A stretch of 64,000 nucleotides of DNA from Escherichia phage vB_EcoM_PD205. The DNA is taken from the sequence record ON922919; one strand, 5' to 3'. The notes under the pieces are model-generated. The model did no database searches. It had not been told where the DNA came from and was given only the letters and a program-made list of their open reading frames with translations. This document shows positions 8,192 through 38,510 of this stretch, in pieces. The position numbers and the translations under genes are program-made. Positions within the stretch are counted from its first letter, which is position 1. Each line of letters starts with the position of its first letter.

Positions 8192-10525
8192 ATGAAAGAC
8201 ATGTTCGCTCAAGGTGGTTCTGGTTCTGCTGGAATCAAAACCAACAAACAAGCTATAGCTAGACACTTTGGTGTTAAGCAATCTGATGTTGTTTATTTCT
8301 CTCCCGGTGTTCCTCTTACCGGATACAAAGTTATTTACGACAAAGAGTCGCAGCGTGCTTACTCATTACCTACTGACATTGGTTCTAGGGTTACTGCTGT
8401 AAGTCTTAGTACTGCTGGGGTATTGGTTCACTCTGCTGGTAATGTGGACTTGGGTGAATTGGCTGTTACTCGTGGGGAGTATGTGACCTTACCTGGTTCA
8501 TTCGATACAGGTGTAACTGTTAATACTAAGAATGAATTGGTTGTCTTTGCTGATGGTAAGTATCGCTGGGACGGGGAGCTTCCCAAAGTAGTGCCTGCTG
8601 ATTCAACTCCAGACAGCACTGGTGAGGTTAAATTAGGAGCGTGGGTTGGTGTTGGTGATGCTGCTTTGAGAGGTGATATAGCAAAATTTGATTATAAAGA
8701 TAAATCATTTGAAGACTCACTATTAAAAAGACCTTACATTTTTGAGTCAGTATCGGAAATGATTGCTGCTGATTTCACTGGCGTCAAAGATGGCGCTGTA
8801 GTTAAAACTTTAAAAAATGAATTTGGTTTAACATGTGAATCAACATGGCGAATAGCATCTTCTCAATTAGAAACCACCTATAACGTTAGCGTTTCAGGAG
8901 GCAGATACGCACAACTAGTCATTGAACCTGAAATGTCTTTTGCATCTTTCGGATTTGGTGGCAACGACATACAAAATGCGGCTGCCGTTACAGAGGGCAA
9001 CCGAGTAGCTAGGGCGAACCCTATTATGCACACACTGCGATTCCCTGCTGGTGCATTTAATATTGGAGCGTTCACTCTTGATGTGGACCGTCGTGGATTT
9101 ACTTGGGACGGGGCTGGATGGGATGGTACATACCTAACTTCTACGTCAAACGGTATATCCATGCATCATATTCTTATCGACCCTAGAAACCGTGCTAGAG
9201 ACCGAGACCATTATTACCAAACAGTTAAAGGTTTTACTATTGACGGCAATATCTCCGGCGTGGGGTCAGCCGCCGCTCAACGAACTGTGTGTTCAGCGCA
9301 CTACTCTAATATTGCGTACAAATCCGTAGGCCATATTTTGTCTAACGTTGACCTTTGTGGATTAGTAATTAATTGGAGGGGACTCACTGGAGGCAGAACT
9401 GTCGGCGCCACTAGAACCAGTAGGAGTGTGCGCGCAAGGTATAACTCCATAAAGATTGATGGATATATCGGAGGTTCCACTGATAATGCGGTGGCTCTTG
9501 AGATAAACGGCCCGATCACCACTTTGGCTGCTGCCGCAAATATCGGCGATACTACGATAACGGTGTCCTCCGCGGTTGGATTTAGCGTCCACGACATCAT
9601 CGAGATTGCTGGCGGAACACTTGACGCCAAAATAATCATCGGGATTTCCGGCAACACACTTACACTTGATAGTGGACTGAATAACGCCCACACTAACGCG
9701 GCAACTGTGAGAGTCCCTGTATTCGGCACATCGGTTACCGGAACCATAGAGGTAGGGCAGATTCAGATAGGTAACTCAAACGGCACTGAATTACGGGGCG
9801 CTTACGCAGAACAGAGTAAAATCTACATTTACGGATGGCCGAGCGCACTGGAAATCCACGGTAACACACTTGGCCAAGCTGCGCCGCAGATTCAAATTGA
9901 CCAAGTTAATCGCCTGTCAACCATCAGGATTGTTTGTAACGATACAGCGTTTCCTATAGCCGTTAACGTTGCGGAGAGAGCCACTGGTGCGGTTAATGCT
10001 AACTTAGACCTTTATAACTTCCCTGAACTTGATATTAGTCAGAACACTCGCGCTCAAAGCAGTATCCTGGTAAATGGAATTTATCCGTTTAAATCACTGC
10101 GTACTGAGCGATTCTATGATTCGTCAATAAATGACCGCGCTTTCACTAGTTTTAAATTCACTGGGTTTTCGGCAACACAAAACCCGGCGACATCGACGGA
10201 GATATTACGATTCGCACAAGACGCTGCCCTACGTGGATATGACGGTCACTCATATAGTATCAGTGCCACAATTAGACGTAACACAGGTCTTTCTGGGCTT
10301 ATAGAGCGTAAAGGACAAACATCCAATATAGGTGGCGTTATCTCAGATACGACCACAGAAGCATCAAGGACGCTCAGTAGCTATGCGTTCTTCGACCCCA
10401 CTAATGGCATGGATATTTTAATCGGCAGTAACACAGGTAGGATGGGAATTGTGCTTAAAGGGGAGCCTTCCAGTGGGCAAGCAATTAAGGCCATGATTAG
10501 TGGTGAAATTGTGAGTGTCATTTAA
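8192..10525 (+). CDS. tail fiber/tailspike-like protein (N4 gp65-like by position)
   Basis: 777 aa; repetitive Gly/Thr/Asn-rich segments suggestive of a beta-helix; followed by a strong terminator. Confidence 0.5.
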   Translation: MKDMFAQGGSGSAGIKTNKQAIARHFGVKQSDVVYFSPGVPLTGYKVIYDKESQRAYSLPTDIGSRVTAVSLSTAGVLVHSAGNVDLGELAVTRGEYVTLPGSFDTGVTVNTKNELVVFADGKYRWDGELPKVVPADSTPDSTGEVKLGAWVGVGDAALRGDIAKFDYKDKSFEDSLLKRPYIFESVSEMIAADFTGVKDGAVVKTLKNEFGLTCESTWRIASSQLETTYNVSVSGGRYAQLVIEPEMSFASFGFGGNDIQNAAAVTEGNRVARANPIMHTLRFPAGAFNIGAFTLDVDRRGFTWDGAGWDGTYLTSTSNGISMHHILIDPRNRARDRDHYYQTVKGFTIDGNISGVGSAAAQRTVCSAHYSNIAYKSVGHILSNVDLCGLVINWRGLTGGRTVGATRTSRSVRARYNSIKIDGYIGGSTDNAVALEINGPITTLAAAANIGDTTITVSSAVGFSVHDIIEIAGGTLDAKIIIGISGNTLTLDSGLNNAHTNAATVRVPVFGTSVTGTIEVGQIQIGNSNGTELRGAYAEQSKIYIYGWPSALEIHGNTLGQAAPQIQIDQVNRLSTIRIVCNDTAFPIAVNVAERATGAVNANLDLYNFPELDISQNTRAQSSILVNGIYPFKSLRTERFYDSSINDRAFTSFKFTGFSATQNPATSTEILRFAQDAALRGYDGHSYSISATIRRNTGLSGLIERKGQTSNIGGVISDTTTEASRTLSSYAFFDPTNGMDILIGSNTGRMGIVLKGEPSSGQAIKAMISGEIVSVI

Positions 10526-10537
10526 CTAGATAAAACT

Positions 10538-10562
10538 AAGGCCCCAAATGGGGCCTTTTCTT
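10538..10562 (+). terminator. intrinsic terminator
   Basis: AAGGCCCC-AAAT-GGGGCCTT hairpin followed by TTTTCTT. Confidence 0.75.
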
Positions 10563-10776: not shown

Positions 10777-11106
10777 ATGAATGAATCTGGTGAGCTGCTC
10801 CTAGTCAGACTGGAGGAACGATTGAAGACTCTGTTTGAGAACCAGACGAGAGACAGGCAGGACCGAGAGAAACTGGAGGAAACTCTGGTAGAACTACGGG
10901 ATTCAATCAACGACATAGGCAATAGACTAAAAAATGTGGAGGATAGTTTAGCTAAGAACGAACCTACTATTGAAGAGTTCATCACCATTAAGCATAAAGT
11001 TGTTGGTGCAGGAATTTTTGGTAAGTGGGTGTGGGCTGGGGCAGGTGCAATTATTGGTGTATTAGCTGCTGCAAGACGGGAGATATTCGCATGGTTCGCA
11101 GGCTGA
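10777..11106 (+). CDS. membrane-anchored coiled-coil protein (possible holin/antiholin component)
   Basis: 109 aa; charged N-terminal coiled coil and one C-terminal hydrophobic segment GAGIFGKWVWAGAGAIIGVLAAA; directly upstream of endolysin. Confidence 0.35.
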   Translation: MNESGELLLVRLEERLKTLFENQTRDRQDREKLEETLVELRDSINDIGNRLKNVEDSLAKNEPTIEEFITIKHKVVGAGIFGKWVWAGAGAIIGVLAAARREIFAWFAG

Positions 11107-11351
11107 AAAGAAAGGTAGAGTTAGTACCTAACTGGAAAAGATGCTGGAAGTGGGCATCCATTCAGATTAGTACGCTTGGGTTAATTATGTTTTCTGCCAT
11201 AGATATCATTCAACCAATGCTGACAGGATTACCTCGTCACATCCTGGAAGATATTCCCCATGGTTCCAATATTGCAATCGCACTGTTTGCCCTAAATATT
11301 GTAGGCAGATTAATACGATTCCGACCAAAGGAAGATTCACATGAAAGCTAA
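11091..11351 (+). CDS. putative holin (two transmembrane segments)
   Basis: about 87 aa from internal Met; two hydrophobic helices and charged C-terminus; immediately upstream of endolysin. Confidence 0.45.
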   Translation: MVRRLKRKVELVPNWKRCWKWASIQISTLGLIMFSAIDIIQPMLTGLPRHILEDIPHGSNIAIALFALNIVGRLIRFRPKEDSHES

Positions 11352-11976
11352 ACAGAAACTTGCTGCGAAAGGTGGTGCAGTGGGAGGAGTTGTCGCTGCT
11401 ATCCTGGGGGCAGTGTTTTATATGGAAGGGGGATACGTAAACAACCCTCGTGACCCAGGTGGAGAAACTAATCATGGCATTACCCAATCGGTAGCTAAGA
11501 CTCATAAAGAAGTTCTGGCTACTGAGTATGGTTGGGATGGTTCTATGAAAGGTTTATCTAAAGAGATGGCTGCTGAGATATACATTGATGACTACGTACT
11601 TAAGCCTAATTTCGTAGCCTTCGCTGATATATCTCCTGCTGTAACACACAAGCTGGTAGATGCTGGTGTTAACACTGGTGTAACCCGTCCTGCTAAGTGG
11701 TTGCAGCAATCTCTTAATGAAATGTCCCGTGATGGCAAAGACTACCCTAAAATACAGGTTGATGGTAAAGTCGGTACAAGTACTGTTAATGCATATAAAG
11801 CATTACAGAAAAAACGAGGCAAAGTTGCAGCATGTCAGGTAATGATTAAGTTACTCGATGCCAAACAACTGAACCACTACACCTCATTAAACATGTCAGA
11901 CTTTACGTATGGTTGGGTAGCTAACCGAATAGGCAATGTGCCACTGGAGGCATGTAATGAAGATGCTAATCTCTAA
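11341..11976 (+). CDS. endolysin, GH108-type N-acetylmuramidase with N-terminal SAR-like segment
   Basis: 211 aa; EGGYVNNPRDPGGETNHGIT matches the GH108 catalytic motif; N-terminal Gly/Ala-rich weakly hydrophobic stretch GGAVGGVVAAILGAVF. Confidence 0.75.
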   Translation: MKAKQKLAAKGGAVGGVVAAILGAVFYMEGGYVNNPRDPGGETNHGITQSVAKTHKEVLATEYGWDGSMKGLSKEMAAEIYIDDYVLKPNFVAFADISPAVTHKLVDAGVNTGVTRPAKWLQQSLNEMSRDGKDYPKIQVDGKVGTSTVNAYKALQKKRGKVAACQVMIKLLDAKQLNHYTSLNMSDFTYGWVANRIGNVPLEACNEDANL

Positions 11977-12463
11977 AGGTTGGCCTTATCTTCTGGTGGT
12001 GGTCCTAGGGGCCACCATTTACTTTTGGGGTAACTCCAATGGACAGTCCACTGTTCAAAAGAAGTGGGATGACCAAAAGGTTGAAGATCAAAAGGCACTA
12101 CAAAAATTACAGGACAAATACAATGCTCTCCAAAGAAACCATAGTTATGAAGTCGGGTTACTCACTTCCCGGTTGCAGACGGCTGAGAGTAATTATGCAA
12201 GCGAGCTTGCTCGCGTTAGCAGTGATTACGACAGCCGGATGCAACAGTCTGAAAGACGAGCATCGGTATATAAACGTCAAGCCGAAGCCGGAACCTTTGA
12301 GTGCAGAAGTCTTGCAAGCCATGCAGCCAGACTCGACAACAGTCTTGAAGAAGGCAGACGTTTGGTTGAAGAACTCAGGGCAACTGTTAGACTCCGTGAC
12401 AGCCAACTAATTGAGTTGGGTAAACAGATTCAGGCTGACCGTAAACTTTTTGAACAGGAATAA
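11936..12463 (+). CDS. i-spanin (Rz-like)
   Basis: 175 aa; N-terminal TM helix then coiled-coil-rich periplasmic domain; immediately after endolysin. Confidence 0.6.
12195..12410 (+). CDS. o-spanin (Rz1-like lipoprotein) embedded in the +1 frame of the i-spanin gene
   Basis: 72 aa from ATG at 12195; signal peptide [16 protein letters not shown] with lipobox Cys; Pro-rich mature part; wholly inside the Rz-like ORF. Confidence 0.6.
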   Translation: MQASLLALAVITTAGCNSLKDEHRYINVKPKPEPLSAEVLQAMQPDSTTVLKKADVWLKNSGQLLDSVTAN

Positions 12464-24341: not shown

Positions 24342-27300
24342 TTGAATAGGAAACATGCTATGTCAACATTTGACCGTCTGGCAGGTTTCGCAGACAGCAT
24401 CACTAATGCTAAGCAAGTCGATGTCTCTACTGCAACCTCCCGGAAGCAAGCTGCACAGGGGCAAAGCCCTTTCCAATTAACCCCAGATAATGCTTACAAT
24501 CTCCAGACTGGACGAGTAGGTAATCTTGGAATCGGTGCATACGAACCAGGTTCACTTCAGGCAGATTTCACTCAAGCCTCCCCCTTAGAAATCATTAATA
24601 AGTATGGTAATGAGCAAGGTCTACAGATTCTTAATAGTCGAGCTAATGCTGCTGATGCTGTACGTCAGGACTTATCTAAACAACGTACTAACGCAGAAGC
24701 ATTTGGCGATATTCTTTCTGGTGTTGGTCTTGGTGTTGCTAATACCCTTGGGGGCATTGCTGCTCTTGGCACAGGCTTGGTCAATGATAATGCCGGGGCA
24801 TCCATTGCTTCCGGGCTTGACTGGTTGAATAAAGGTGTACACAACCTACAGTCTGATGCATTGAATGCTCGTCGTAATGTAGTACAGAACCAGAACGTAA
24901 TATCTGCACAGGAGAATGATAAACTCTATAAGCAGGATATTGCTAAAGGAGAAAGTGAACTCGTTGCTTCCCTGTCTCGAATTGGTCGTGATGCTTATGA
25001 TTCTGTCACTAATACACTTGATAATGGCATGGCTGCTACAGATGGCCTGGCTGAGGGCGTTGGTTCTCTGTTTACTGGTGGTCCACTAATTCGTGGTGTA
25101 TCTGCACTCGGTAAGGTAATGGTAGGTGGTGATAAAGCTGTTAAGGGCATTACCTTAGCTGCTGAGTTAGGTTCACGTCCTGCACGGATTGCACAGTCTG
25201 CTGGGCGTATTGCTGCGCCTGCTATAGCAATTGGTGGTATGGAAGCTGGTGGTGCATACCAACAAACTGCCAATGAAATTATGGAAATGCCATTCAGTGA
25301 ACTGGCTGCTAAATCTCCTGTATACCAACAGCATATTAAAGACGGTCTGTCTCCTGAAGAAGCACGACGTCAGACTGCATCTGAAACAGGTATCACTGCT
25401 GCTGGCTTAACTGCTCCAGTTGCTGCTCTTACTGCTCCACTGGTATCCAAGTTTGAACTTAACCCACTCAAGGTAGGTTCACTGGCTGGTGCTGGTTCTA
25501 ACATGCTGCGTGAGACTGTAGAAGAAGGTATCCAGTCTGGTACTAGCCAGCTTGCACAGAACAAGGCAATTCAGGGTAATGTAGATGCTAAGCGTGATTT
25601 GCTTAAAGGCGTGGGTGAACAAACCGGTCTTGGTGCATTGTATGGCTTCGGTTCTGCTGGAGTTGCTCAAGCTCCTGGTACAACTGTTAAGGCTGCTGGT
25701 GCTGCCGTTGGTCCTGCTGTACGTACTACCCTGGCTGGTGCTTCTCTGGCTGGTAAGGCACTAGCAAAAGTAGCTTCCCCTATTACTACCATCCTGGTTC
25801 AACGTGGTGAAGAAGTTGCTAAGCGTAATGAACAAGCATCCCCTGTATCAGACGCTACAGTTAACGCTGCTGCACAGGAAGCCACTGCTCAGGCAGAACA
25901 AGCACAAGCAACTGTTCAGGAAGCAGTAGATGCAATGGATATTTCTCCTGAAGAGAAAACTGCTGCTACTCAGTATGCTGCTGATTTAACTCAGGCAATG
26001 AAGTTTGACCCTGTAGAACTGGAGCAAGCTAGTCCGACAATCCGTGAAGCTGTTTCTGGTTCTACTAACCGTGTTGAAGCTATTCAGAAGATGGCTGACC
26101 TGGTTAATACTGCTGAAGACCCTAACGTTCAAATGGAAGCTGCAATCCAGATGTATGACAACATCATGTCTATGGATAGCTTCATTAACCGTGACCCAGG
26201 TGCATTAGCTAATCTAGAACAAGGTTCTCCTGCTGCTGCAATCGTAGACCAGTTCTCCGGACTGATGGCTAACGTTCAGAATACACCGAAGGTACTCCGT
26301 GCATTCCGTGCTATCCATTCCATGATTCAGGAACAGGCAGAAGCAGGTAAACTGAAAGCCACTGAAGAAGCTAATCAAGCCCAGGCAAACAACATTGCTA
26401 TGGCTGCTGATATGTCTCCAGAAGTACTGGATGCAGATTCAGTTAACATGGTTCTGAAACACGCAAGTGAAGGTAAGATTACACTTGGGAATCGTCAGCG
26501 TGCTGCCCTGCAATCTGCTGCTGCTTTATTGCAAGGAGCACGAGAATTTGACGCTAAAGCAGAAGAACTAGGCTTACGTCCTCAAGACATTGTTAGTAAA
26601 CAGATTAAAACCGACGAATCTCGTTCTAATGAAGGTCAGTACTCTGCGTTGCAACACGCTAAACGCATTCGTTCTGCGTACAACTCTGGTAACTTCGATT
26701 TGGCTTCCGCTTATCTCGACGACTTTATGAAGTTCGCCCAGCACATGCAGAATAAGGTCGGAGCGTTGAATGAGCATCTGATTTCTGGGAATGCGGATAA
26801 GAATAAGTCTGTCCATTATCAGGCTCTTACTCCCTCGCGTGAATGGGTACGTAGTCGTACTGGCCTCGGTGTCAATCCGTATGATACCAAGTCTGTTAAG
26901 TTTGCCCAGCAAGTAGGACTGGAAGCCAAGACCGTAGCTGATATTGCTAACGCACTTGCTACGGCTTACCCGGAGCTTAATGTTTCTCATGTGAAGGTTA
27001 CCCCATTGGATTCACGTCTGGACAAGCCTGCTGCCCAGGTAGTTAAAGAGTTCCGTCAGGGCAATCTTGATGCTGCTCAATCCCAACAGACCAATGAACC
27101 AGTGAATCAGGTTGATGAAACTCCTGTTACGAAACAGGAACCAGTTACCCCTACTGTACAGACTAAACCCTCTGTTAGTGAAGCTGTTAAAACAGAACCT
27201 ACTAATAAAGAGTCTAATCCACAGACTGCAAAAGAACCTGAGAACCAGTCTGAAAAACAGGATACCATCAAGCAGTCTACTGAATCTGAAAGGGATGCTT

Positions 27301-30300
27301 ATGTAAAAGAGAATACTATTTCCCAGGATACTCTTAATAAGTACGGTGACCGTAGGGAGAGTCCGTGGCTCTTTGCAGATGGTACTGTTGTTGGTTCTAA
27401 TGGTGACCATATCAGCCTGTCTGATGTATTTGGTCATGATGGTTATCGTGATATGTCATTAGATACTGGTGCTATTCGCTCCACTTTCTACAAAGGAAGT
27501 GAGCAACCATTTGTATCATTACAACTGTTTGATAATCAAAAGCTGACTCCTGAACAATTTAATACTGTTCAATCATTCGTAGAAGCAAACAATGCACTGA
27601 TTCAGGTTGGTGTAGATACGTCTGGGCGTAATACCAATAACGTTAAGAAGGAAGAAGTATCACTGGCTCAACTGAAAGCAGACTATACCGTTGGTGGTAA
27701 ACCTCTATCGGAAATGGAAACAGTGTTCCCTGTCTATAACAATGACAAGACACCGAACCAGTTCCTGAAAGCATTTACCCTTCCGGAAGAACCTAAGTCT
27801 CGTACCATTGGTTCTGAATCTCCTTTGACCGATGTTAAGAAAGCACTATCCTCTGTTGCTCGCTTTGAGGCATTCACTCAAAAAGAAAATAACGCTCTCA
27901 CAAGTGATGTGATTAAGCGTTACCAGGACTTGTTTGATTTTGGTGAAACTCTGAAGACTACCTTGTCTGACCGTCTTGCTAAGTTCCTTGCTAATAAGAA
28001 TGTTGGTAAACGCTTTGCAGAAGGTACTGAGGCTAATCGTTGGGTAGGTGGCAAACTGCTTAACATCGTAGAGAAAGATGGAGACACCTTTAAGTTCAAT
28101 GACCAGTTGTTAGAGACTGCTGTACTTGCTGGTCTGCAATGGCGACTGACTGCTACACAGAATGCTGCCATTAAAGACATGAAAGACGTAGCTGCTATTA
28201 CTGGTGTAGAAGCATCCCTGTTACCTGAAGGTATTCTGGCTGACTTCGAGAATGCTCAGACTCTGGTGGAAGCCACTAACTCTCTGGCTCAAAAGATTGA
28301 ATCTTATTGGGGTTTGAATCGTAATCCTAATGCACCCCTGGGTTATACCAAGGGTATCCCAATGGCAATGGCTACAGAGATTCTGTCTTCTCTCATTGAG
28401 ATGGGTGAAGTTAAAGAGTCTATGCTGGATGTGTCTGAGATTGACCCAGAATCCAATAAGACTGTTGGTCTGTATACCATTGAGAAGCTGGATGATAACG
28501 ATGCCATTAACAAATTCCCTACTGCTATTGAGGAAGCTGTCCTCGTAGAACCAGTAGAGAAACTGTACCTGGGTGATGATATTCCTTCCGTGGCTCAAAC
28601 TCAGTTACGTAACCCGGCTGTCAAGAATACCCCGGAACAGAAAGCTGCTCTTAAAGCAGAACAGGCTACTGAGTTCCGTGTACATATGCCGATGGTTAAC
28701 TTCTACGAAGCATTGGGTCGTGACAACATTCTGGAACTAATGGGTGCTGGTGCTCTTACCCCAGAATTGCTGAATGTGAATACTGCTAAATCTCTGGAAG
28801 GTAAAAACCTATCCGTGTCTATGGCATATGATTCCTTGTTTGGTGTAATCAATCAGATTAAGGAACAAGAGAATGGACTGGATACACCTATCCACTATGG
28901 CTACAACATGACCCGTGTAGGTCGTATGCAGATGCTTGGTAAGAACAACCCACAATCCAGCAAGCTGGTACGTGAAGCAATCCTACCAACTTTCTCTACC
29001 ATCGACTTGAGTAATGAAAACAGCCAAACGTTCTCTGACTTCCAGCTTGGACTGGCTCAGGCATTGGGTATCAAAGTTCATAAAATGTCCCGTGAAGTTA
29101 TGTCGGATGAGCTGACTAAAGCTCTGGAAGGTAAATTGAAACCTGCCGTTGATATGATGGTTGAGTTTGATAAGTCTGGGCACTTACCTACTGATGCTGT
29201 GGATATTCTGAAGACCTCTTTGGGTAATGATAAATCATTTGTAGCTCTCATGGCTCTGATGGAGTATGCCCGTTACTTGAACAGTGATGACCGAGCCAAC
29301 TTTAATACTCCACTGTACGTTGAAGCTGATGGTGTAACCAACGGGCCAATCAACGCAATGGTATTAATGACTGGTGGTAAGTTCACTTCAGACTGGATTA
29401 AGAATACTGCTAAGGGTGGTTTGTTCTTCGGTAAAGCAGGTAAGACCATGAACGAGCATCATTCGCATGAGGACAGTGTTGACCTGTATGAAGCATCCAC
29501 TAATAGTCTACAACAGGCACTGAATGAATTACGTAGTACTTATCGTAACAACGTTCCTGTTACGAACCAGATGAAGCATCTTCAGAAGTTAATGGACCTG
29601 TTCATTAAAGACTTCAATCTTAATGAAGATGGTACTCTGGACCTGAAACGTGGTATCGCTAAAAACCCACTGACTATTACCATCTATGGCTCAGGTGCTC
29701 GTGGTATTGCAGGCAAGATGGTTAGTGCAATTACTGACACCATCTACGAACGCTTCAGTGACGTTCTACAAGCCCGTGCTGCTGACCCTAGCATTTCCCC
29801 AGCTATGGCTATGTTTGGTAAGGAGGCTGCGTCTGAGGCCGATGCTCAGGCTATGCTGGATACTTTCCTTACTTCTATGGAAGCACTGACTGGTAATGTT
29901 CCAGTTATGCGTAAAGGTGAACTGTCTATTCAACAAGCAGAGGGTGCTCTGTCTGGTAAGTTAGACCCCCAGAAGTTTACCGTATCTGGCAATGCTCTGA
30001 AGAACCTGCAAGAGAATATGCTTCACCTGTTCGTTGAACCAATGCGTACTGGTATCCGAAATACCGTTGGCGAAGGTCTGATGCACTCTACTGAGAACTT
30101 GCAGAAGGCTACTCAGATTCAATCTCTGGTATTGCAGGATATGTTCCAACAAGCAGTACAGGCTAAGCTGACAGAAAAAGAAAAAGACCCAACATGGAAG
30201 AAAGGTGATTTCTTAACACAGAAAGAACTAAATGAAATCCAGGCTTCATTATCTCCACTGGCTCCAATGATTGAGACTGGTTCTCAGACTTTCTACATTG

Positions 30301-33300
30301 CTGGTAGTGAGAATACTGATGTTGCTAACCAAGTATTGGCTACTAACTTAGATGACCGTATGCGTGTGCCAATGAGCATTTATGCTCCTTCACAGGCAGG
30401 TGTTGCAGGTATTCCATTTATGACCATCGGTACTGGTGATGGCATGATGATGCAGACCCTTTCTACTATGAAAGGTGCTCCGAAGAATACCCTGAAAATC
30501 TTTGATGGTATGAACATTGGCATTAATGACATCACTGATGCAAGCCGTAAAGCTAATGAGGCTGTATATACTTCCTGGCAGGGCAATCCTATCAAGAATG
30601 TTTATGATTCCTTTGCTAAGTTCATGAAGAATGTAGACTTCAGCAAACTGTCTGATGAAACCAAACAAGCTATCGCTAAGTCTGCTCTGGAGTATGACCA
30701 GCGTGAGGGTGCTACTGATGACCTGTTACGTGTTGGTGCTGAACAGATTGAACGTAACCTGCGTAACATTGCTTTAGGTGTAGATATTCGTCACAAGGTA
30801 ATGGACCAGGTACAAGTCACTGTTGACCAGATGGCTGCTGTAGGTGCTCCTTATGTGAACAACGGTAAAATCTCTTTGGAAGGTCTGACTGTAGACCAGC
30901 AAGTAGCTAAGCTGAACGAACTGTTTGATGCTGAATTAAACAAGCGTCGTGATGCAGTACGTGCTGCTAAAGCAGAACCAGTGAAAGAAGTACCAGCTAT
31001 GGAACAGGTTGGTCGTGTACTGAAGTCTGGTGTACGTCTGCTGTCTAATACTGCTATCGCTAAACTGGCTAAAGAGATGTCTCCTGAACAACAAGCAGTA
31101 TTAAAAGAAATACAGAAATCCCTTGCTGCCAAAGACTATAAGGTTGTTTACGGTACACCTTCTCAACTGGATGCTTATGCTATTGAGAAGAACATTACTC
31201 GCCCAGCACCGGAAGATATTGAAGCTGCTGAAGCAGGTAATGCATATGGCTGGACTAACTTTGAAGATAAGACCATCTACTTAGTTACCCCTTCCTTAGA
31301 GACTCTGGTTCATGAATTGGTACATGCTTCTACTTTTGAATCTGTACTGGCTCACTATGAGGGTACTCCTAATGAAGCAGTCCAGAACATTGAAGACCTG
31401 ATGAATCAGTTCCTTACTCTGGATGTTAAGGATGAATCCCCGGCAGTACGTGAAGCATATGCTGATGCACTGAATACCATTAATGGACACCTGTCTAATG
31501 GCTTCATTGAACCAGCGATGGCTAAAGCTGCTGCGTTGAATGAGTACATGGCATGGGGCTTAACCAACCGTGAACTGATTGGTAAGCAGAAGAAAACTAC
31601 TGCACTGAAAACTATGGTTCAGGCTGTATATGAAGCAATCAAACGTCTGGTATTCGGACGTAAGAAAGCTCCAGCTAATGCAGATGATATGTTCTCTGGC
31701 TTACTGTTTAACTCTGCTGTAGTAATGCGTGGACAAGCTCCTACTGCTGCTGTAGCCAAAGACACTACCCTGTTCCATAACAAAGCGTATGGTGAAAATA
31801 CTCGTCTGGAAGGGCTAGGGAAAACCTTTGATAAGTTGATTACTGACTACATTGGTTCAGAACCAGTACAGCAAGTAATTCGTAAAGGTAAGTTCTCTGA
31901 TGCAGTAGTGAATGCAACTAAAGTAACTCGTGATGTTCAGGCACATGGCTTCACCATGAATATGCAGGAACAGCGTCTATTTACTAACATTGTTGCTGCA
32001 CTAGCTACCGAGGCTGCTATTAACCCTGCTGCTTTGGCTCGTGCACAGGAATACTACACACATGTTACTAAGAACCTGACCGTTGAAGCATTCATGGCTG
32101 ACCCGGATAGTACTAACCCTGCTGACCGTTACTATGCACAGCAGAAGTTCGATACCATCATGGGTGCTAACAACATTGAGTTTGATGCACAAGGTCGTTC
32201 TTCCTTACTGCCTACCTTTGTTGGACTGGCAATGGTAAGTGAAGAGGTACGTAAAGTACTGGCTGATATTCCTGTTATGAAAGTAGATAAGAAATCAGGC
32301 AATACCGTTGATGCAATGCTGACTAACATCGGTACTGCTGCAATGGCTAGTCTGAATGCTCGTGTAGCAGGCGATACTAAAGCTACTAACGTACAGGAAG
32401 GTATGGATGCACTGGCTCAGACAATCATGCAGACCAGCCTTAATGCAGAATCCTTCTATGATTCCGTTGCTACTCCTACTGGTAATGCTATTGACCGTGC
32501 TAACCAGTATCTGGTGGACTCTATTGATGTACTGTCTACCCGTGCTTTGGAAGGTGCTCGTGAAGTTGCAGCTAATACCAAGAATCCATTGGTTAAAGGT
32601 GCTGCTCATGCTGCACAACTGATAGCTGCTATCGCTACAGAGAAGAATGGTTCAATCGTAGCTGAAGGTGTTATGGCTGCAATGAACCAAGGTAAAGTAT
32701 GGCAACCTTTCCATGACCTGGTTAATGACTTAACTGGTCGTACTAAGAGCAATGCTTCTGTTTATGATTTGATTAAAGCAGTACGTGCACAGGTACAGGC
32801 TGACCGTCAGCAATTCCGTGAGCATTTACCTACCACTATCGCATCTAAGTTCAGTCGTAAACTGACTAATGATGAGTGGAGAGCAATGCATACTGGTATG
32901 GGTAAGACTGACTTAGCTGTTCTGCGTGACACTATGTCTCTGGATGAAATCCGTGACCTGCTGACTGACCAGAAGATTGTTGACCGTGAGGTTAATAAAC
33001 TGGAAGCAGATTTGCAGAAACAAGCCGGACGTAACTGGCCTCTGATTAACCGTAAATCTAAGCAACTAGCTCAGTATATGATTAACGGTACGGTTGGTAA
33101 TAACCTGCTGCGTAATGCTACTGCAATTTCTCGCTTGCTGGGGGAACGTAAGACTACACGTTCTGTTGTAGATGTAGCTCAACTGGATAAATTGATTACC
33201 CTGTATGCACTGGAAGCAATGAGTAAGACTGACCGTGAGATGTTATCTTCACTGGCTCAGACAGAAATTGAAGGTATGGATTTTGCTACTTCTTATCTGG

Positions 33301-35114
33301 TTGGTCAGCGTAAAGATGAAATGGCTAAAGCTAAGTCTGATAGTCGTGCAACCTTGAACCAGTACAAAGGGTATATCCCTAGCGAGAACAAACAGGGAGT
33401 TAACCTGATTGTTGCTGAAGATAGTCAGTTCTCTGATTTGATTGAGAAATCCTATGTACGTCTGGGTACTTATCAGGGTAGTTCTGCTAACCGTGGTGCA
33501 GCACGTAGTTACTACTTTGCACCGGTACAGGCACAGGCTCCATTCTCACAGGGTATCCTACAGAACGTTCGCAATACTGCTGGTGGTGTAGACCTTGGTA
33601 CAGGCTTTACGATGGGAACCATGGTAGCTGGTCGTATCACTGACAAACCTTCCGTAGACCGTATTACTAAAGCACTGGCTCGTGGTGAACGTGGTAATGA
33701 ACCACTGCTGCCTGTATATGATGCCAATGGTAATGTGATTGCTTACGAGCAATCTATTGACCCTAATATGCTGAAGCACATTGAAGGTGAGAACCATCTT
33801 GCTCGTGCAATTGGTGTATGGCGTGGTCGTCAAGTAGAAGAAGCTAAGGCCCAGCGTTTCAACGATATTCTGATTGAGAATCTGCACAGCATGTATGAGA
33901 ACGACATTAAGATGTCTGCTTCTAATAAGTCCCAGTACGTTAACCTTCTTGGTTCTAAACTGGACCCAGTAACTGCCGATGCTCTTAAACTGATGAACAG
34001 TGAAACTCGTCAGAAAGCAGAAAGTCTGTTTGGTCCGGGTGAGTTGTGGGTACGTCGTGACATGCTTAATGATGCTTTAGGTTATCGTGCAGCTTCTGTG
34101 GGTGATGCCTGGTCTGGTAATTCTCGTTGGTCCCCAGAAACACTGGATACCTTCAAGAAAGCTATGCTTGGTGTCTTCGGTAACCGTGCCTATAAGTATG
34201 TAATGGGTGGTGAGAATCTGGTTCAAAACTTAGTTAAAGAAGCTAAGACTCTGATTGTAGTTAAATCAGTAGTCGTACCTGCTGTTAACTTCCTGGCTAA
34301 CCTTTACCAGATGGTTGCTCGTGGTGTACCTGTTAAGAATATTGCTAAGAGCATTCCACAGAAGACTGCTGAGATTAACCAGTATCTGAAATCTCGTCTG
34401 CGTCAGGTAGATGCAGAAGCAGAGTTACGTGCAGCTACTAACCCGAACCAGATTCGTAAGCTGAAGGCCGAGATTCAGTCCATCACGGATAGCCATAAGC
34501 GTTTAAGTATCTGGCCTCTGCTGGAAGCTGGCGAGTTCTCCTCAATTGCAGATGCTGGTATTGGACGTGATGACATCCTGATTACTGAAGGTAAACTTCA
34601 CGAGTACATGGATAAGCTGGCTGATAAGCTGCCTAAGTCTGTACGTAACGCAGGACGATATGCACTTATTACTAAGGATACTGCTCTGTTTCAGGGTATC
34701 CAGAAGACGGTTGAATACTCTGACTTTATCGCTAAGGCAATCATCTATGATGAACTGACTCAGCGTAAAGGTAAGACTCGTGAAGAAGCACTTGGACGTG
34801 TAACGGAAGAGTTCATTAACTATGACCGTTTGCCAGGTCGCTTCCGTGGGTATATGGAAAGTGTTGGTCTGATGTGGTTCTACAACTTTAAGATTCGTTC
34901 TGCAAAAGTTGCAGTGTCCATGATTCGTAACAACCCAGTCCATGCTGCTATGGCTATGTTGGCCCCAACTCCTACCATGTTTGGTAATGTTGGTCTGCCT
35001 ATTCAGGATAACATCTTTAGCATTGCTGCACAGGGTAACCTTGGTTACTCCTTCGGTTTCGGTCAAGGTTTACGTGCCCATAACCTTAACCCTTGGCTCA
35101 ACCTTACTAACTAA
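24342..35114 (+). CDS. virion RNA polymerase (giant N4-type vRNAP)
   Basis: single 3590-aa ORF; T7-like RNAP motif A-like YVEADGVTNGPINA and motif B-like LKRGIAKNPLTITIYGSG in the central region. Confidence 0.88.
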   Translation: MNRKHAMSTFDRLAGFADSITNAKQVDVSTATSRKQAAQGQSPFQLTPDNAYNLQTGRVGNLGIGAYEPGSLQADFTQASPLEIINKYGNEQGLQILNSRANAADAVRQDLSKQRTNAEAFGDILSGVGLGVANTLGGIAALGTGLVNDNAGASIASGLDWLNKGVHNLQSDALNARRNVVQNQNVISAQENDKLYKQDIAKGESELVASLSRIGRDAYDSVTNTLDNGMAATDGLAEGVGSLFTGGPLIRGVSALGKVMVGGDKAVKGITLAAELGSRPARIAQSAGRIAAPAIAIGGMEAGGAYQQTANEIMEMPFSELAAKSPVYQQHIKDGLSPEEARRQTASETGITAAGLTAPVAALTAPLVSKFELNPLKVGSLAGAGSNMLRETVEEGIQSGTSQLAQNKAIQGNVDAKRDLLKGVGEQTGLGALYGFGSAGVAQAPGTTVKAAGAAVGPAVRTTLAGASLAGKALAKVASPITTILVQRGEEVAKRNEQASPVSDATVNAAAQEATAQAEQAQATVQEAVDAMDISPEEKTAATQYAADLTQAMKFDPVELEQASPTIREAVSGSTNRVEAIQKMADLVNTAEDPNVQMEAAIQMYDNIMSMDSFINRDPGALANLEQGSPAAAIVDQFSGLMANVQNTPKVLRAFRAIHSMIQEQAEAGKLKATEEANQAQANNIAMAADMSPEVLDADSVNMVLKHASEGKITLGNRQRAALQSAAALLQGAREFDAKAEELGLRPQDIVSKQIKTDESRSNEGQYSALQHAKRIRSAYNSGNFDLASAYLDDFMKFAQHMQNKVGALNEHLISGNADKNKSVHYQALTPSREWVRSRTGLGVNPYDTKSVKFAQQVGLEAKTVADIANALATAYPELNVSHVKVTPLDSRLDKPAAQVVKEFRQGNLDAAQSQQTNEPVNQVDETPVTKQEPVTPTVQTKPSVSEAVKTEPTNKESNPQTAKEPENQSEKQDTIKQSTESERDAYVKENTISQDTLNKYGDRRESPWLFADGTVVGSNGDHISLSDVFGHDGYRDMSLDTGAIRSTFYKGSEQPFVSLQLFDNQKLTPEQFNTVQSFVEANNALIQVGVDTSGRNTNNVKKEEVSLAQLKADYTVGGKPLSEMETVFPVYNNDKTPNQFLKAFTLPEEPKSRTIGSESPLTDVKKALSSVARFEAFTQKENNALTSDVIKRYQDLFDFGETLKTTLSDRLAKFLANKNVGKRFAEGTEANRWVGGKLLNIVEKDGDTFKFNDQLLETAVLAGLQWRLTATQNAAIKDMKDVAAITGVEASLLPEGILADFENAQTLVEATNSLAQKIESYWGLNRNPNAPLGYTKGIPMAMATEILSSLIEMGEVKESMLDVSEIDPESNKTVGLYTIEKLDDNDAINKFPTAIEEAVLVEPVEKLYLGDDIPSVAQTQLRNPAVKNTPEQKAALKAEQATEFRVHMPMVNFYEALGRDNILELMGAGALTPELLNVNTAKSLEGKNLSVSMAYDSLFGVINQIKEQENGLDTPIHYGYNMTRVGRMQMLGKNNPQSSKLVREAILPTFSTIDLSNENSQTFSDFQLGLAQALGIKVHKMSREVMSDELTKALEGKLKPAVDMMVEFDKSGHLPTDAVDILKTSLGNDKSFVALMALMEYARYLNSDDRANFNTPLYVEADGVTNGPINAMVLMTGGKFTSDWIKNTAKGGLFFGKAGKTMNEHHSHEDSVDLYEASTNSLQQALNELRSTYRNNVPVTNQMKHLQKLMDLFIKDFNLNEDGTLDLKRGIAKNPLTITIYGSGARGIAGKMVSAITDTIYERFSDVLQARAADPSISPAMAMFGKEAASEADAQAMLDTFLTSMEALTGNVPVMRKGELSIQQAEGALSGKLDPQKFTVSGNALKNLQENMLHLFVEPMRTGIRNTVGEGLMHSTENLQKATQIQSLVLQDMFQQAVQAKLTEKEKDPTWKKGDFLTQKELNEIQASLSPLAPMIETGSQTFYIAGSENTDVANQVLATNLDDRMRVPMSIYAPSQAGVAGIPFMTIGTGDGMMMQTLSTMKGAPKNTLKIFDGMNIGINDITDASRKANEAVYTSWQGNPIKNVYDSFAKFMKNVDFSKLSDETKQAIAKSALEYDQREGATDDLLRVGAEQIERNLRNIALGVDIRHKVMDQVQVTVDQMAAVGAPYVNNGKISLEGLTVDQQVAKLNELFDAELNKRRDAVRAAKAEPVKEVPAMEQVGRVLKSGVRLLSNTAIAKLAKEMSPEQQAVLKEIQKSLAAKDYKVVYGTPSQLDAYAIEKNITRPAPEDIEAAEAGNAYGWTNFEDKTIYLVTPSLETLVHELVHASTFESVLAHYEGTPNEAVQNIEDLMNQFLTLDVKDESPAVREAYADALNTINGHLSNGFIEPAMAKAAALNEYMAWGLTNRELIGKQKKTTALKTMVQAVYEAIKRLVFGRKKAPANADDMFSGLLFNSAVVMRGQAPTAAVAKDTTLFHNKAYGENTRLEGLGKTFDKLITDYIGSEPVQQVIRKGKFSDAVVNATKVTRDVQAHGFTMNMQEQRLFTNIVAALATEAAINPAALARAQEYYTHVTKNLTVEAFMADPDSTNPADRYYAQQKFDTIMGANNIEFDAQGRSSLLPTFVGLAMVSEEVRKVLADIPVMKVDKKSGNTVDAMLTNIGTAAMASLNARVAGDTKATNVQEGMDALAQTIMQTSLNAESFYDSVATPTGNAIDRANQYLVDSIDVLSTRALEGAREVAANTKNPLVKGAAHAAQLIAAIATEKNGSIVAEGVMAAMNQGKVWQPFHDLVNDLTGRTKSNASVYDLIKAVRAQVQADRQQFREHLPTTIASKFSRKLTNDEWRAMHTGMGKTDLAVLRDTMSLDEIRDLLTDQKIVDREVNKLEADLQKQAGRNWPLINRKSKQLAQYMINGTVGNNLLRNATAISRLLGERKTTRSVVDVAQLDKLITLYALEAMSKTDREMLSSLAQTEIEGMDFATSYLVGQRKDEMAKAKSDSRATLNQYKGYIPSENKQGVNLIVAEDSQFSDLIEKSYVRLGTYQGSSANRGAARSYYFAPVQAQAPFSQGILQNVRNTAGGVDLGTGFTMGTMVAGRITDKPSVDRITKALARGERGNEPLLPVYDANGNVIAYEQSIDPNMLKHIEGENHLARAIGVWRGRQVEEAKAQRFNDILIENLHSMYENDIKMSASNKSQYVNLLGSKLDPVTADALKLMNSETRQKAESLFGPGELWVRRDMLNDALGYRAASVGDAWSGNSRWSPETLDTFKKAMLGVFGNRAYKYVMGGENLVQNLVKEAKTLIVVKSVVVPAVNFLANLYQMVARGVPVKNIAKSIPQKTAEINQYLKSRLRQVDAEAELRAATNPNQIRKLKAEIQSITDSHKRLSIWPLLEAGEFSSIADAGIGRDDILITEGKLHEYMDKLADKLPKSVRNAGRYALITKDTALFQGIQKTVEYSDFIAKAIIYDELTQRKGKTREEALGRVTEEFINYDRLPGRFRGYMESVGLMWFYNFKIRSAKVAVSMIRNNPVHAAMAMLAPTPTMFGNVGLPIQDNIFSIAAQGNLGYSFGFGQGLRAHNLNPWLNLTN

Positions 35115-37610: not shown

Positions 37611-37680
37611 GATGTCAGTAGGTCGGGGGCTGGATTCGAACCAGCGAGAGAAGTAGCGACCATCTGCACATGCCTACGTG
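37611..37680 (-). tRNA. putative tRNA gene (anticodon unresolved)
   Basis: on - strand: 7-bp acceptor stem GTCGGGG/CCCCGAC, D-stem GCAC/GTGC with GG in loop, T-arm GCTGG-TTCGAAT-CCAGC; anticodon stem imperfect by hand folding. Confidence 0.45.
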
Positions 37681-38510
37681 CTACCCCGACCATTATAATA
37701 GGAGGGAGGGGACGAGTCCTCCCTTTATACCCTATATTGCATGTAAGACCTAACAATTCGATGCTGTAGGTAGCTATGCTATCCGACATTTAACCCAGCC
37801 CATATAGGGGCTTATGTGATTAAAATGCTCAACATTGAGCGGTTAGTTTGATAAGGGATCTGAAGCCTTATCCCAAAGATACTAACCTTTGGGATATAGC
37901 CTATCATTCAGAAATGGCCCCTATAGGGAGAGGCCATTGATTAACCCGAATGTTGCTTTACATTTGCTGTGATAACCTATTCTTAAAATAGTCTACCTGA
38001 CGGATGGGCATAAACCCTAGCGTCAGTGCCATACGGCAAAGATTAAGTTAAGAAAGGTTATGATAGGAGTTCCTATCTCAAAGGATTCTGACAGAACCCT
38101 TCACGATATTAACTACTCTTTTTCAATGCTTCAACTTCACCCTCTTTATACCAAGCATACGGTATTAAGATTTTGCAGCCTTATGAATCAATGTGGAATG
38201 CTTTGTTTCCTTCAGCAGGTTCTCCACCCATGAAAGAACTAACCTTTCCATTGAGCCAGTGAATAGTAAATTTGTTCATATTAACCCCGGTTGAACCAAT
38301 GGACTTCGGAGAGTATTAAAGCCCACTGGTTCGGTTGTTGTTATTCTGGCGGCTTGTCACCACCGTGTTTACCACTGCATTTCCACAGGATAATGACAGT
38401 GATGATAAAAGCTATGTATGGAGCCGACACGTCTATAATCCTGACCAGTAGTAGCATCAGGACTATAAACACTACCACACCTAGCAGCAGCTTCTGAGCC
38501 ACCTACCAGA

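Follow-up and report, generated by a model that had tools for sequence, protein, structure and literature searches.

Phage 21 lyses its host with the S21/R21/Rz-Rz1 system, in which small depolarising holes free a tethered endolysin and two-component spanins, with an embedded o-spanin gene, then act. S21 has two transmembrane domains (TMDs), of which TMD1 is a signal-anchor-release (SAR) domain. R21 is a T4-lysozyme-type (GH24) enzyme, whereas the endolysin considered here belongs to GH108.

The type of cassette that we describe is already known: sister phages have it annotated, and its counterpart in phage N4 has been studied by experiment. In N4, gp63 is a C-terminally anchored pinholin that can stand in for S21 but not for lambda S; its small holes are lethal and depolarise the membrane, freeing SAR but not soluble endolysins. 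The canonical holin gp62 is late-triggering and non-essential, supports the release of both endolysin types, late, and behaves as a large-hole holin. gp61 is a SAR endolysin, membrane-associated and leaky like R21: exported through Sec, it stays inactive on the membrane until depolarisation sets it free. Whether its partner is a large-hole holin or a pinholin, it complements endolysin defects, and putting charge into its SAR domain (e.g. G12E) leads to rapid lysis. Lastly, gp60 and gp60a complement lambda Rz/Rz1 ambers (all from complementation and genetic work in bioRxiv 10.1101/2025.11.12.688109). The gp61 muramidase was first described by Stojkovic and Rothman-Denes in 2007, as cited in bioRxiv 10.1101/2025.11.12.688109.

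The cassette and its putative hole-forming proteins

We analysed a 64,000-nt stretch of Escherichia phage vB_EcoM_PD205 (ON922919; the window). The cassette occupies 10777-12463 on the + strand, and all of the open reading frames (ORFs) listed in an initial annotation of this DNA were found in place. The region is 96.7% identical in nucleotide sequence to those of the Gamaleyavirus phages ECBP1, St11Ph5 and ShWW44; on this sequence evidence the source phage is a Gamaleyavirus, i.e. a G7C-like, N4-related coliphage. The products are colinear with N4 gp63, gp62, gp61, gp60 and gp60a (68, 62, 66, 55 and 69% identity, respectively), and the order, size and sequence of every element match its N4 counterpart. 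Very probably, then, this N4-like Gamaleyavirus has its late lysis module here, encoding a pinholin, a holin, a SAR endolysin and two-component spanins. The features are:

10538..10557, no strand assigned: hairpin rich in G+C, with T-runs on each strand; called as a terminator-like site in both orientations
10777..11106, + strand: gp63-like putative pinholin, 109 aa (identity to N4 gp63; phrog_5211)
10957..10989, + strand: conserved PTIEEFITIKHK segment, aa 61-71 of the gp63-like protein, equivalent to the N4 'LIN domain' (N4 gp63 alignment)
10999..11073, + strand: C-terminal membrane anchor VVGAGIFGKWVWAGAGAIIGVLAAA, aa 75-99 of the gp63-like protein
11091..11351, + strand: gp62-like putative holin, 86 aa (DUF7940, phrog_1356, N4 gp62 identity)
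11341..11976, + strand: gp61-like SAR-type GH108 N-acetylmuramidase, 211 aa (Pfam, N4 gp61 identity)
11371..11424, + strand: SAR segment, endolysin aa 11-28, following the n-region MKAKQKLAAK (composition, N4 homology)
11425..11436, + strand: catalytic EGGY motif, endolysin aa 29-32 (aligned to N4 gp61, 6v3z and 6v40)
11957..12463, + strand: gp60-like i-spanin, 168 aa (phrog_6197, N4 gp60 identity)
12123..12410, + strand: gp60a-like o-spanin nested within the i-spanin gene, +1 frame (N4 gp60a identity, synonymous-rate suppression)

The hairpin lies just 3' of a tail-fibre/tailspike gene (8192-10525) and is likely to be a transcriptional boundary ahead of the cassette. A scan of the + strand ahead of the cassette found no sigma-70-like promoter; a match to the sigma-70-like consensus is not expected of N4 late promoters.

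The first gene encodes a protein whose N-terminal part is a coiled coil and which has a hydrophobic segment towards the C-terminus. It is homologous to N4 gp63 over its full length, the C-terminal 50 residues being nearly identical, and it matches phrog_5211 (E 3e-50), which PHROGs labels 'unknown function'. The PTIEEFITIKHK segment is conserved across three Schitoviridae subfamilies, and of the five positions linked to rapid lysis in N4, this protein keeps four (T65, I70, T71 and I72) and has Asn in place of S62. The protein therefore combines N4 gp63 homology with a predicted cytoplasmic coiled coil, the PTIEEFITIKHK segment and a single C-terminal TMD, and by analogy with N4 its role as pinholin and master timer is supported. 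In many database records the gp63 homologue appears as 'hypothetical' or, wrongly, as 'tail length tape-measure protein'; it should carry the annotation 'pinholin'.

The second gene overlaps the first by 16 nt and encodes a protein with two hydrophobic segments, predicted from hydropathy to be TMDs (at approximately aa 23-40 and 58-75). The protein matches Pfam DUF7940 (54.3 bits against a cut-off of 27) and phrog_1356, labelled 'holin' (E 3.6e-30); this profile match, the two TMDs and the basic termini are those of a gp62-type holin. The analogy with N4 supports reading this protein, for all its database label of 'holin', as an accessory holin. Its ATG at 11091 has GGGAG 8 nt upstream. An in-frame GTG at 11025 could extend the product to a 108-aa long form, but was rejected as the main start because its spacing from an AGGA is poor and the frame is closed in Moo19. 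The Pfam, PHROG and NCBIfam matches of the two small membrane proteins included no S21-type holin family. The initial annotation had offered both as holin/pinholin candidates, which their identities to N4 gp63 and gp62 bear out.

G7C, the type phage of the genus, and likewise JWAlpha have been reported not to show lysis inhibition, the motive of the N4 model (bioRxiv 10.1101/2025.11.12.688109), so that lysis regulation here may differ from that in N4. Even so, this phage, G7C and JWAlpha have all kept the 'LIN domain' and the C-terminal anchor of gp63 almost unchanged. Since the segment persists in phages reported to lack lysis inhibition, it may be a general cytoplasmic trigger-control element of the tail-anchored pinholins, an unusual class, instead of a lysis-inhibition device, a tentative idea that we rate as possible but rather unlikely. 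If it were true, the determinants of the long N4 lysis delay would lie outside the cassette, and this phage would lend itself as a natural comparator with which to map them.

The GH108 endolysin and its N-terminus

The 211-aa endolysin has AGGAAG 6 nt upstream of its ATG and the N-terminus MKAKQKLAAKGGAVGGVVAAILGAVFYM-EGGYVNNPRDPGGETNHGIT. Both of its domains scored above the Pfam cut-offs: Glyco_hydro_108 (PF05838) at aa 24-113 with 71.8 bits (cut-off 21.2) and PG_binding_3 (PF09374) at aa 117-196 with 35.9 bits (cut-off 24.6). The residues E29-G-G-Y32 are invariant relative to N4 gp61 and align with the EGGY of 6v3z and 6v40, so the GH108 catalytic motif proposed in the initial annotation is in place.

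Between K10 and E29 lie 18 uncharged residues, 50% of them Gly or Ala, that end at EGGY. The identity to N4 gp61 includes this stretch, N4 G12 corresponding to G15 here, and the same N-terminal design was present in 22/22 N4-like endolysins examined. Among other GH108 phage endolysins, a 13-residue charged helix stands at this position in approximately 62 of 79. GH108 phage endolysins can be split cleanly into soluble and SAR-type enzymes by the residues just before EGGY. The last 5-10 residues of the segment align with those preceding EGGY in the solved GH108 proteins 6v3z and 6v40. The composition, the basic n-region and the conservation of the design agree with the SAR-type N-terminus that the initial annotation had recognised. 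Its wording 'weakly hydrophobic' needs a qualification: on a crude, position-independent scale the summed Hessa value of the segment is 2.0, against 3.4-4.7 for the neighbouring TMDs, and Hessa and Kyte-Doolittle sums, equally crude, did not rank it as less hydrophobic than the TMDs of the gp60, gp62 and gp63 homologues. As the hydropathy scales fail to separate the segment, that label comes from composition and homology only.

A basic n-region and an uncharged h-region, with a possible small-residue site near the end of the latter (between LGA and VF), could also make up a cleavable Sec signal peptide, in which case the enzyme would be a soluble, constitutively active periplasmic muramidase and lysis would be timed elsewhere. 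We regard this as very improbable: the h-region meets the catalytic EGGY directly, with no polar c-region; cleavage between LGA and VF would cut into the start of the GH108 domain (from residue 24 in Pfam, from 19-23 in the PDB alignments); and N4 gp61 is membrane-associated and SAR-like, with charge insertions that speed lysis (bioRxiv 10.1101/2025.11.12.688109).

The crude hydropathy values, which put the segment on a par with the true TMDs nearby, and the presence of a canonical-type holin homologue (the gp62-like protein) would instead fit a permanent type II signal anchor, the enzyme being active while tethered or dependent on large holin holes. This too has very little probability, given a segment that is 50% Gly+Ala with a design conserved across N4-like phages, and given that N4 gp61 functions alongside S21, the phage 21 pinholin with holes impassable to proteins, and that N4 gp62 is dispensable (bioRxiv 10.1101/2025.11.12.688109). 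We infer that the endolysin behaves as a SAR enzyme by analogy with N4 gp61.

The spanin genes and the embedded reading frame

The i-spanin gene adjoins the endolysin gene, with which it shares 20 nt; at its 3' end, 2 nt separate it from the portal ATG at 12466. Its product has a predicted N-terminal signal-anchor TMD (aa 8-25, nt 11978-12031) followed by a periplasmic helical domain, matches phrog_6197 'Rz-like spanin' (E 1.1e-77) and is 55% identical to N4 gp60, as befits the Rz-like i-spanin of the initial annotation. We prefer the ATG at 11957, which is preceded at 6 nt by a Shine-Dalgarno sequence, GGAGG; 11936 has none and was rejected.

Wholly within 11957-12463, in the +1 frame, is a second ORF that ends at 12410. 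An ATG at 12195 lies 238 nt (3x79+1) 3' of 11957; read from here, 15 residues precede CNS, with the lipobox Cys encoded at 12240-12242. The mature product would have 56 aa (12240-12407), the same length as in N4 gp60a. The h-region and Cys fit a PROSITE-like pattern, {DERK}(6)-[LIVMFWSTAG](2)-[LIVMFYSTAGCQ]-[AGS]-C, and the +2 residue is Asn and not the Asp retention signal; by pattern, the ORF thus carries a lipoprotein signal.

We compared synonymous differences in the i-spanin frame (pS) region by region in five diverged comparisons. Inside 12195-12410, pS was 0.21-0.43; outside the overlap, in the N-terminal part of the gene, it was 0.65-0.95; in the 17-codon tail past the overlap, which has only about 9 synonymous sites, it was 0.42-0.76. 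Both frames are therefore under selection, and the initial annotation's reading of fully embedded overlapping genes stands. Megablast similarity to distant N4-like phages persists only over the spanin overlap, and an embedded lipobox ORF recurs 3' of SAR-type GH108 endolysins in diverged loci. It is this region-wise comparison, rather than a codon shuffle, that is the informative test of the +1 frame. When the codons of gp60 were shuffled synonymously, 392/20000 sequences reached the observed 133-codon open +1 run, which is modestly significant, and 3% had a lipobox-like pattern; the p value is only ~0.02-0.03, since little of the +1 frame is free to vary once the protein sequence is set.

The embedded o-spanin gene is real and more than a product of chance. 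Were the +1 ORF a chance frame, the outer membrane would have to be disrupted by the i-spanin alone or by another gene. That an equally long frame and a lipobox-like pattern arose in 2 and 3% of gp60 shuffles would accord with such a frame, as would two features of the databases: searches of the o-spanin from three starts against Pfam, PHROGs and NCBIfam profiles found no family, and most GenBank records leave the ORF unannotated. However, synonymous divergence in the gp60 frame is two- to three-fold lower over 12195-12410, and only there, than in the N-terminal part outside the overlap; the o-spanin, at 69% identity to N4 gp60a, is more conserved than gp60 itself (55%); the lipobox and the 56-aa mature length are kept as far away as Achromobacter phage JWAlpha, and the lipobox also in Erwinia phage Gutmeister; and N4 gp60 and gp60a together complement lambda Rz/Rz1 (bioRxiv 10.1101/2025.11.12.688109). 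A chance frame is consequently the least probable of the alternatives that we weighed, and extremely so.

The part of the initial annotation that did not hold as well is the start of this gene. It had placed an embedded lipoprotein o-spanin at ATG 12195; the lipobox and the identity to gp60a uphold the lipoprotein, but the start is doubtful. The candidates are 12123 (conserved, with AGGA 8 nt upstream), 12147 and 12195, the last in this phage only. The codon at 12195 aligns with the N4 gp60a start, yet it is ACG in 9/9 close relatives examined (GenBank phage records fetched singly, as IMG/VR gave one close relative, ECBP1), and an o-spanin starting there would have an n-region without a basic residue, such residues being gained only from 12123 or 12147. 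The genus does not conserve ATG 12195, so the most likely site of initiation is farther 5', at 12123 or 12147; of the two, 12123 is probably the start for the genus. The TAC-to-TAT change at 12196, found in this phage only, would add a second, N4-like start and give two signal-peptide isoforms; the mature lipoprotein is unchanged whichever start is used. Usually missed by gene callers, the embedded o-spanin should be annotated with an upstream start in Gamaleyavirus. Apart from this start, the sequence evidence supports the interpretation in the initial annotation.

Proposed order of lysis and comparison with known systems

For the phage's own proteins we infer export, tethering, release, hole size, lipidation and membrane fusion from the N4 homologues. 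The GH108 muramidase would leave the cytoplasm through the host Sec system, its Gly/Ala-rich N-terminal segment serving as a tether to the inner membrane. In this state the enzyme would be inactive, because the SAR segment runs directly up to the catalytic residue, E29, and shares residues with helix 1 of the GH108 fold. The C-terminally anchored gp63-like protein would build up in the inner membrane and, on triggering, form small depolarising holes, with the two-TMD gp62-like holin acting as a slower, accessory hole-former. Loss of the membrane potential would release the SAR segment, allowing the enzyme to refold in the periplasm and degrade the murein around the cell. With the meshwork out of the way, the i-spanin in the inner membrane and the +1 frame product, the lipoprotein o-spanin in the outer membrane, would act together, bridging the periplasm and fusing both membranes. 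The cassette products would in this way break the three envelope layers in order. The importance of the locus beyond correct annotation is limited; a SAR endolysin and an embedded spanin pair can be recognised by a reader from the letters of the DNA.

The closest characterised system is that of N4 (Awuah et al., bioRxiv 10.1101/2025.11.12.688109), with which this phage has in common the five genes, their order and overlaps, and a position between tail-fibre genes and the portal gene. Also common to both are the SAR design ending at EGGY, a C-terminally anchored gp63 with PTIEEFITIKHK, and a 56-aa mature o-spanin in the +1 frame. N4 is an Enquatrovirus, whereas this phage is a Gamaleyavirus, and there are differences of detail. 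The endolysin n-region is 3 residues longer here and starts with ATG, not GTG as in N4; the internal Met17 alternative start of N4 gp63 is absent from the gp63-like protein; and in Gamaleyavirus the o-spanin start is placed 5' of where N4 has it. Lysis inhibition, unlike in N4, is reportedly absent from G7C-type phages (bioRxiv 10.1101/2025.11.12.688109).

Within the genus, records annotate a holin, an N-acetylmuramidase and Rz/Rz1 spanins at the corresponding places. All five genes are annotated in G7C (HQ259105), St11Ph5 (MG208881), Bas96 (PQ850623) and Mimir124 (PQ310662), which have ~95-97% nucleotide identity to this phage; the embedded spanin is called gp60', gp60.1 or o-spanin and is given three different starts, equivalent to 12039, 12123 and 12147. 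The annotated Gamaleyavirus cassettes have ACG at the position of ATG 12195, which is found in this phage alone.

With phage 21, the cassette has a proposed working mode in common but no sequence relationship, and in place of the two TMDs of S21 its predicted pinholin combines one C-terminal anchor with a coiled coil that is long and cytoplasmic. With the solved GH108 muramidases 6v3z (Sen1395), 6v40 and 2ikb (NMB1012), the endolysin has in common the catalytic domain with EGGY and PG_binding_3 (E 2e-27 against 6v3z and 1.5e-20 against 6v40). In the solved chains, however, a charged helix precedes EGGY (e.g. DEILGK-EGGY), where the endolysin described here has an uncharged, Gly/Ala-rich membrane segment.

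Cassette layout and phage relatives

Five tightly packed genes occupy 10777-12463 on the + strand of the window, with a tail-fibre/tailspike gene on one side, followed by a terminator-like hairpin (10538-10557), and the portal gene (start 12466) on the other:

10777-11106, +, 109-aa ORF; charged helical N-terminal part, hydrophobic C-terminal segment
11091-11351, +, 86-aa ORF; two hydrophobic segments, 16-nt overlap with the 109-aa ORF
11341-11976, +, 211-aa ORF (endolysin); 11-nt overlap with the 86-aa ORF
11957-12463, +, 168-aa ORF (i-spanin); 20-nt overlap with the 211-aa ORF, GGAGG 6 nt 5' of the ATG
Stop at 12410, +, +1 frame, ORF embedded in the 168-aa ORF (o-spanin)

The five products were aligned with those of the phage N4 cassette. 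The two sets are colinear, with identities of 68% (gp63), 62% (gp62), 66% (gp61), 55% (gp60) and 69% (gp60a). The five-gene lysis cassette proposed here by the initial annotation is upheld.

Over the cassette, the window shares 96.7% identity with the Escherichia phages ShWW44, ECBP1 and St11Ph5. Matches were found in 87 phage records, almost all from N4-like phages, and the best of them are classified as Schitoviridae, Enquatrovirinae, Gamaleyavirus. An ORF of 3590 aa (24342-35114, +; TTG start), the size expected of an N4-type virion-encapsidated RNA polymerase, fits this N4-like, Gamaleyavirus origin and indicates that the window is most of an N4-like genome, in the opposite orientation to the N4 reference. 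ARAGORN predicted one tRNA gene, a tRNA-Ala with anticodon CGC (37620-37691, -), in the interval that separates the giant RNA polymerase gene from the block of minus-strand genes.

In the St11Ph5 and G7C records, gp63 is hypothetical, gp62 a putative holin, gp61 an N-acetylmuramidase and gp60 an Rz-like spanin with an embedded second spanin; the Bas96 record names the embedded gene 'o-spanin'. The cassette has thus been described and annotated before, and its interest is accordingly low. Many GenBank N4-like records (including the comparison records L084, L087, L088 and L089) label gp63 homologues 'tail length tape-measure protein', 'tail needle protein' or 'hypothetical'; the tail-protein labels look like propagated mis-annotation. 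In some records the annotated i-spanin is cut down to its C-terminal 74 residues, e.g. in Escherichia phage HK2 (L088; 1583-1807), whose annotation also lacks the holin; truncated calls of this kind appear to be the source of phrog_20026, a family of 74 positions.

Two terminator-like hairpins with T-runs lie inside coding sequence, at 11394-11415, in the stretch of the endolysin gene that encodes the SAR segment, and at 11995-12019, where the i-spanin TMD is encoded. In the JWAlpha record, a 'putative terminator' is likewise annotated early in the endolysin gene, but its distance from the start codon is ~30 nt greater than in the window. Both hairpins are probably by-products of Gly/Ala codons.

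The embedded o-spanin gene and its start

The initial annotation described an Rz-like i-spanin enclosing a lipoprotein o-spanin in the +1 frame, and this arrangement is borne out. The 168-aa protein matches phrog_6197 'Rz-like spanin' (E 1e-77), and the embedded frame encodes 39 residues and then |CNSLKDEH, with the lipobox Cys codon at 12240-12242. The predicted mature o-spanin has 56 residues, as in N4. By the '+2 rule', Asp at +2 is an inner-membrane retention signal; the residue here is Asn. The embedded ORF drew no family match from Pfam, PHROGs or NCBIfam, whichever start was used.

That the embedded o-spanin is a real gene follows from product conservation, synonymous rate and nucleotide similarity. 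Against N4, its product is better conserved than that of the host frame (69% versus 55%). When the window is compared with five phages (Moo19, Klebsiella phage PW7, N4, JWAlpha and Gutmeister), synonymous sites of the gp60 frame differ at a proportion of 0.21-0.43 over 12195-12410, versus 0.65-0.95 in the N-terminal non-overlapping part; in the short tail past the overlap (~9 synonymous sites) it is 0.42-0.76. Megablast similarity to N4 and to Klebsiella, Pseudomonas and Achromobacter N4-like phages is limited to the dual-coding part (window 12195-12461), running at 80-88% identity from query positions 239-310, where the o-spanin begins, to the gene end (~505); the rest of the spanin gene in these distant phages has diverged past megablast detection. 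A synonymous-shuffle test of the +1 frame was weakly significant (2%), and in diverged uncultured loci an embedded lipobox ORF is also found downstream of SAR-type GH108 endolysins.

The start codon proposed initially, ATG 12195, needs correcting. It aligns to the N4 gp60a start, but the codon at 12195-12197 is ACG in all nine close relatives (eight Gamaleyaviruses and Moo19) and ATG in the window alone, owing to a TAC-to-TAT substitution, silent in the gp60 frame. The GenBank records of sister phages place the start further upstream, at the equivalent of 12039, 12123 (St11Ph5) or 12147 (Bas96). The properties of three ATG candidates are:

12123, +, in all Gamaleyaviruses, GTG in Moo19; AGGA 8 nt upstream; n-region with K and RRLR
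12147, +, ACG in ECBP1; no Shine-Dalgarno; n-region with K and RRLR
12195, +, ACG in all nine relatives; GAGAG 5 nt upstream; n-region without a basic residue

Because only the upstream starts supply basic residues, the start in the genus is most likely 12123 or 12147. Over 12123-12194, little or no synonymous suppression is seen, in keeping with loose constraint on the n-region. All candidates give the same mature lipoprotein.

A GH108 endolysin with a putative SAR segment

The endolysin is confirmed as a GH108 enzyme: it carries the EGGY motif, and its Pfam scores exceed the cut-offs for both Glyco_hydro_108 (71.8 bits) and PG_binding_3 (35.9 bits). The closest solved structures are those of the GH108 proteins 6v3z and 6v40. 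The N-terminus of the endolysin reads MKAKQKLAAK-GGAVGGVVAAILGAVFYM-EGGY; the basic n-region is followed by 18 uncharged residues (50% Gly+Ala), and these lead straight into the catalytic Glu. Crude hydropathy sums did not place this segment below the neighbouring true TMDs in hydrophobicity. The same design was present in all 22 N4-like endolysins inspected, from Enquatrovirinae, Rothmandenesvirinae, Erskinevirinae and uncultured contigs. Together with homology to N4 gp61, the Gly/Ala-rich segment points to a SAR-type N-terminus, as first suggested.

The Pfam match begins at residue 24 and the PDB alignments at residues 19-23, so the distal part of the membrane segment is homologous to the stretch before EGGY in soluble enzymes. 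Membrane embedding would then withhold part of the GH108 fold and the adjacent catalytic Glu, and release would permit refolding.

Among 79 phage and prophage GH108 endolysins from IMG/VR (loci L004-L083), the residues before EGGY define two clean classes. About 17 have such a membrane-type segment, with a basic n-region and 15-19 uncharged Gly/Ala/Ser/Thr-rich residues (~195-215 aa in total), often with an embedded spanin pair downstream. The majority have a 13-residue charged helix at that place, e.g. MNIEQYLDELIKR-EGGY, and total ~180 aa.

Comparison with the N4 lysis system

The N4 gp60-63 genes were characterised by the Ramsey laboratory, and the cloned cluster is enough for rapid lysis (bioRxiv 10.1101/2025.11.12.688109). 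In that study, gp61 complemented endolysin defects with a large-hole holin or the phage 21 pinholin, was leaky, as is R21, and gave rapid-lysis mutants in which negative charge entered the N-terminal Gly/Ala-rich segment (e.g. G12E); gp60 and gp60a complemented lambda Rz/Rz1 (bioRxiv 10.1101/2025.11.12.688109). The equivalent of G12 is kept in the window endolysin as G15. Homology to this experimentally dissected system supports the initial functional interpretation as correct in kind.

The two small membrane proteins, put forward as holin/pinholin candidates, can be given more precise roles from their N4 homology. N4 gp63 complements the S21 pinholin and not lambda S, and is lethal on triggering, whilst gp62 is a canonical holin that acts late and is non-essential (bioRxiv 10.1101/2025.11.12.688109). 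The 109-aa protein has a sole family match, phrog_5211 (function unknown), and retains the gp63 segment PTIEEFITIKHKVVGAG and C-terminal anchor nearly unchanged, with four of five rapid-lysis positions identical; the equivalent of S62 is Asn in the window and Ser in G7C. The two-TMD 86-aa protein matches DUF7940 and phrog_1356 'holin'. The pinholin would thus be the C-terminally anchored 109-aa protein, rather than the two-TMD protein that databases call 'holin'.

Differences from N4 were also seen. The internal Met17 of gp63 is absent from the 109-aa protein, and the ATG of the proposed gp62 long form corresponds to an in-frame GTG at 11025. The extension (11025-11090) would add 22 residues to the gp62-like holin and shares its DNA with the part of gp63 that encodes the TMD. 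Its frame is uninterrupted in Gamaleyaviruses, Klebsiella phage PW7 and N4, but Shigella phage Moo19 has a stop codon within it. The Shine-Dalgarno spacing of the extension in the window is poor; the 86-aa ORF itself has a good Shine-Dalgarno sequence (GGGAG, 8 nt). Since G7C is reported not to show lysis inhibition (bioRxiv 10.1101/2025.11.12.688109), lysis regulation in Gamaleyavirus may differ from that of N4 despite the same parts.
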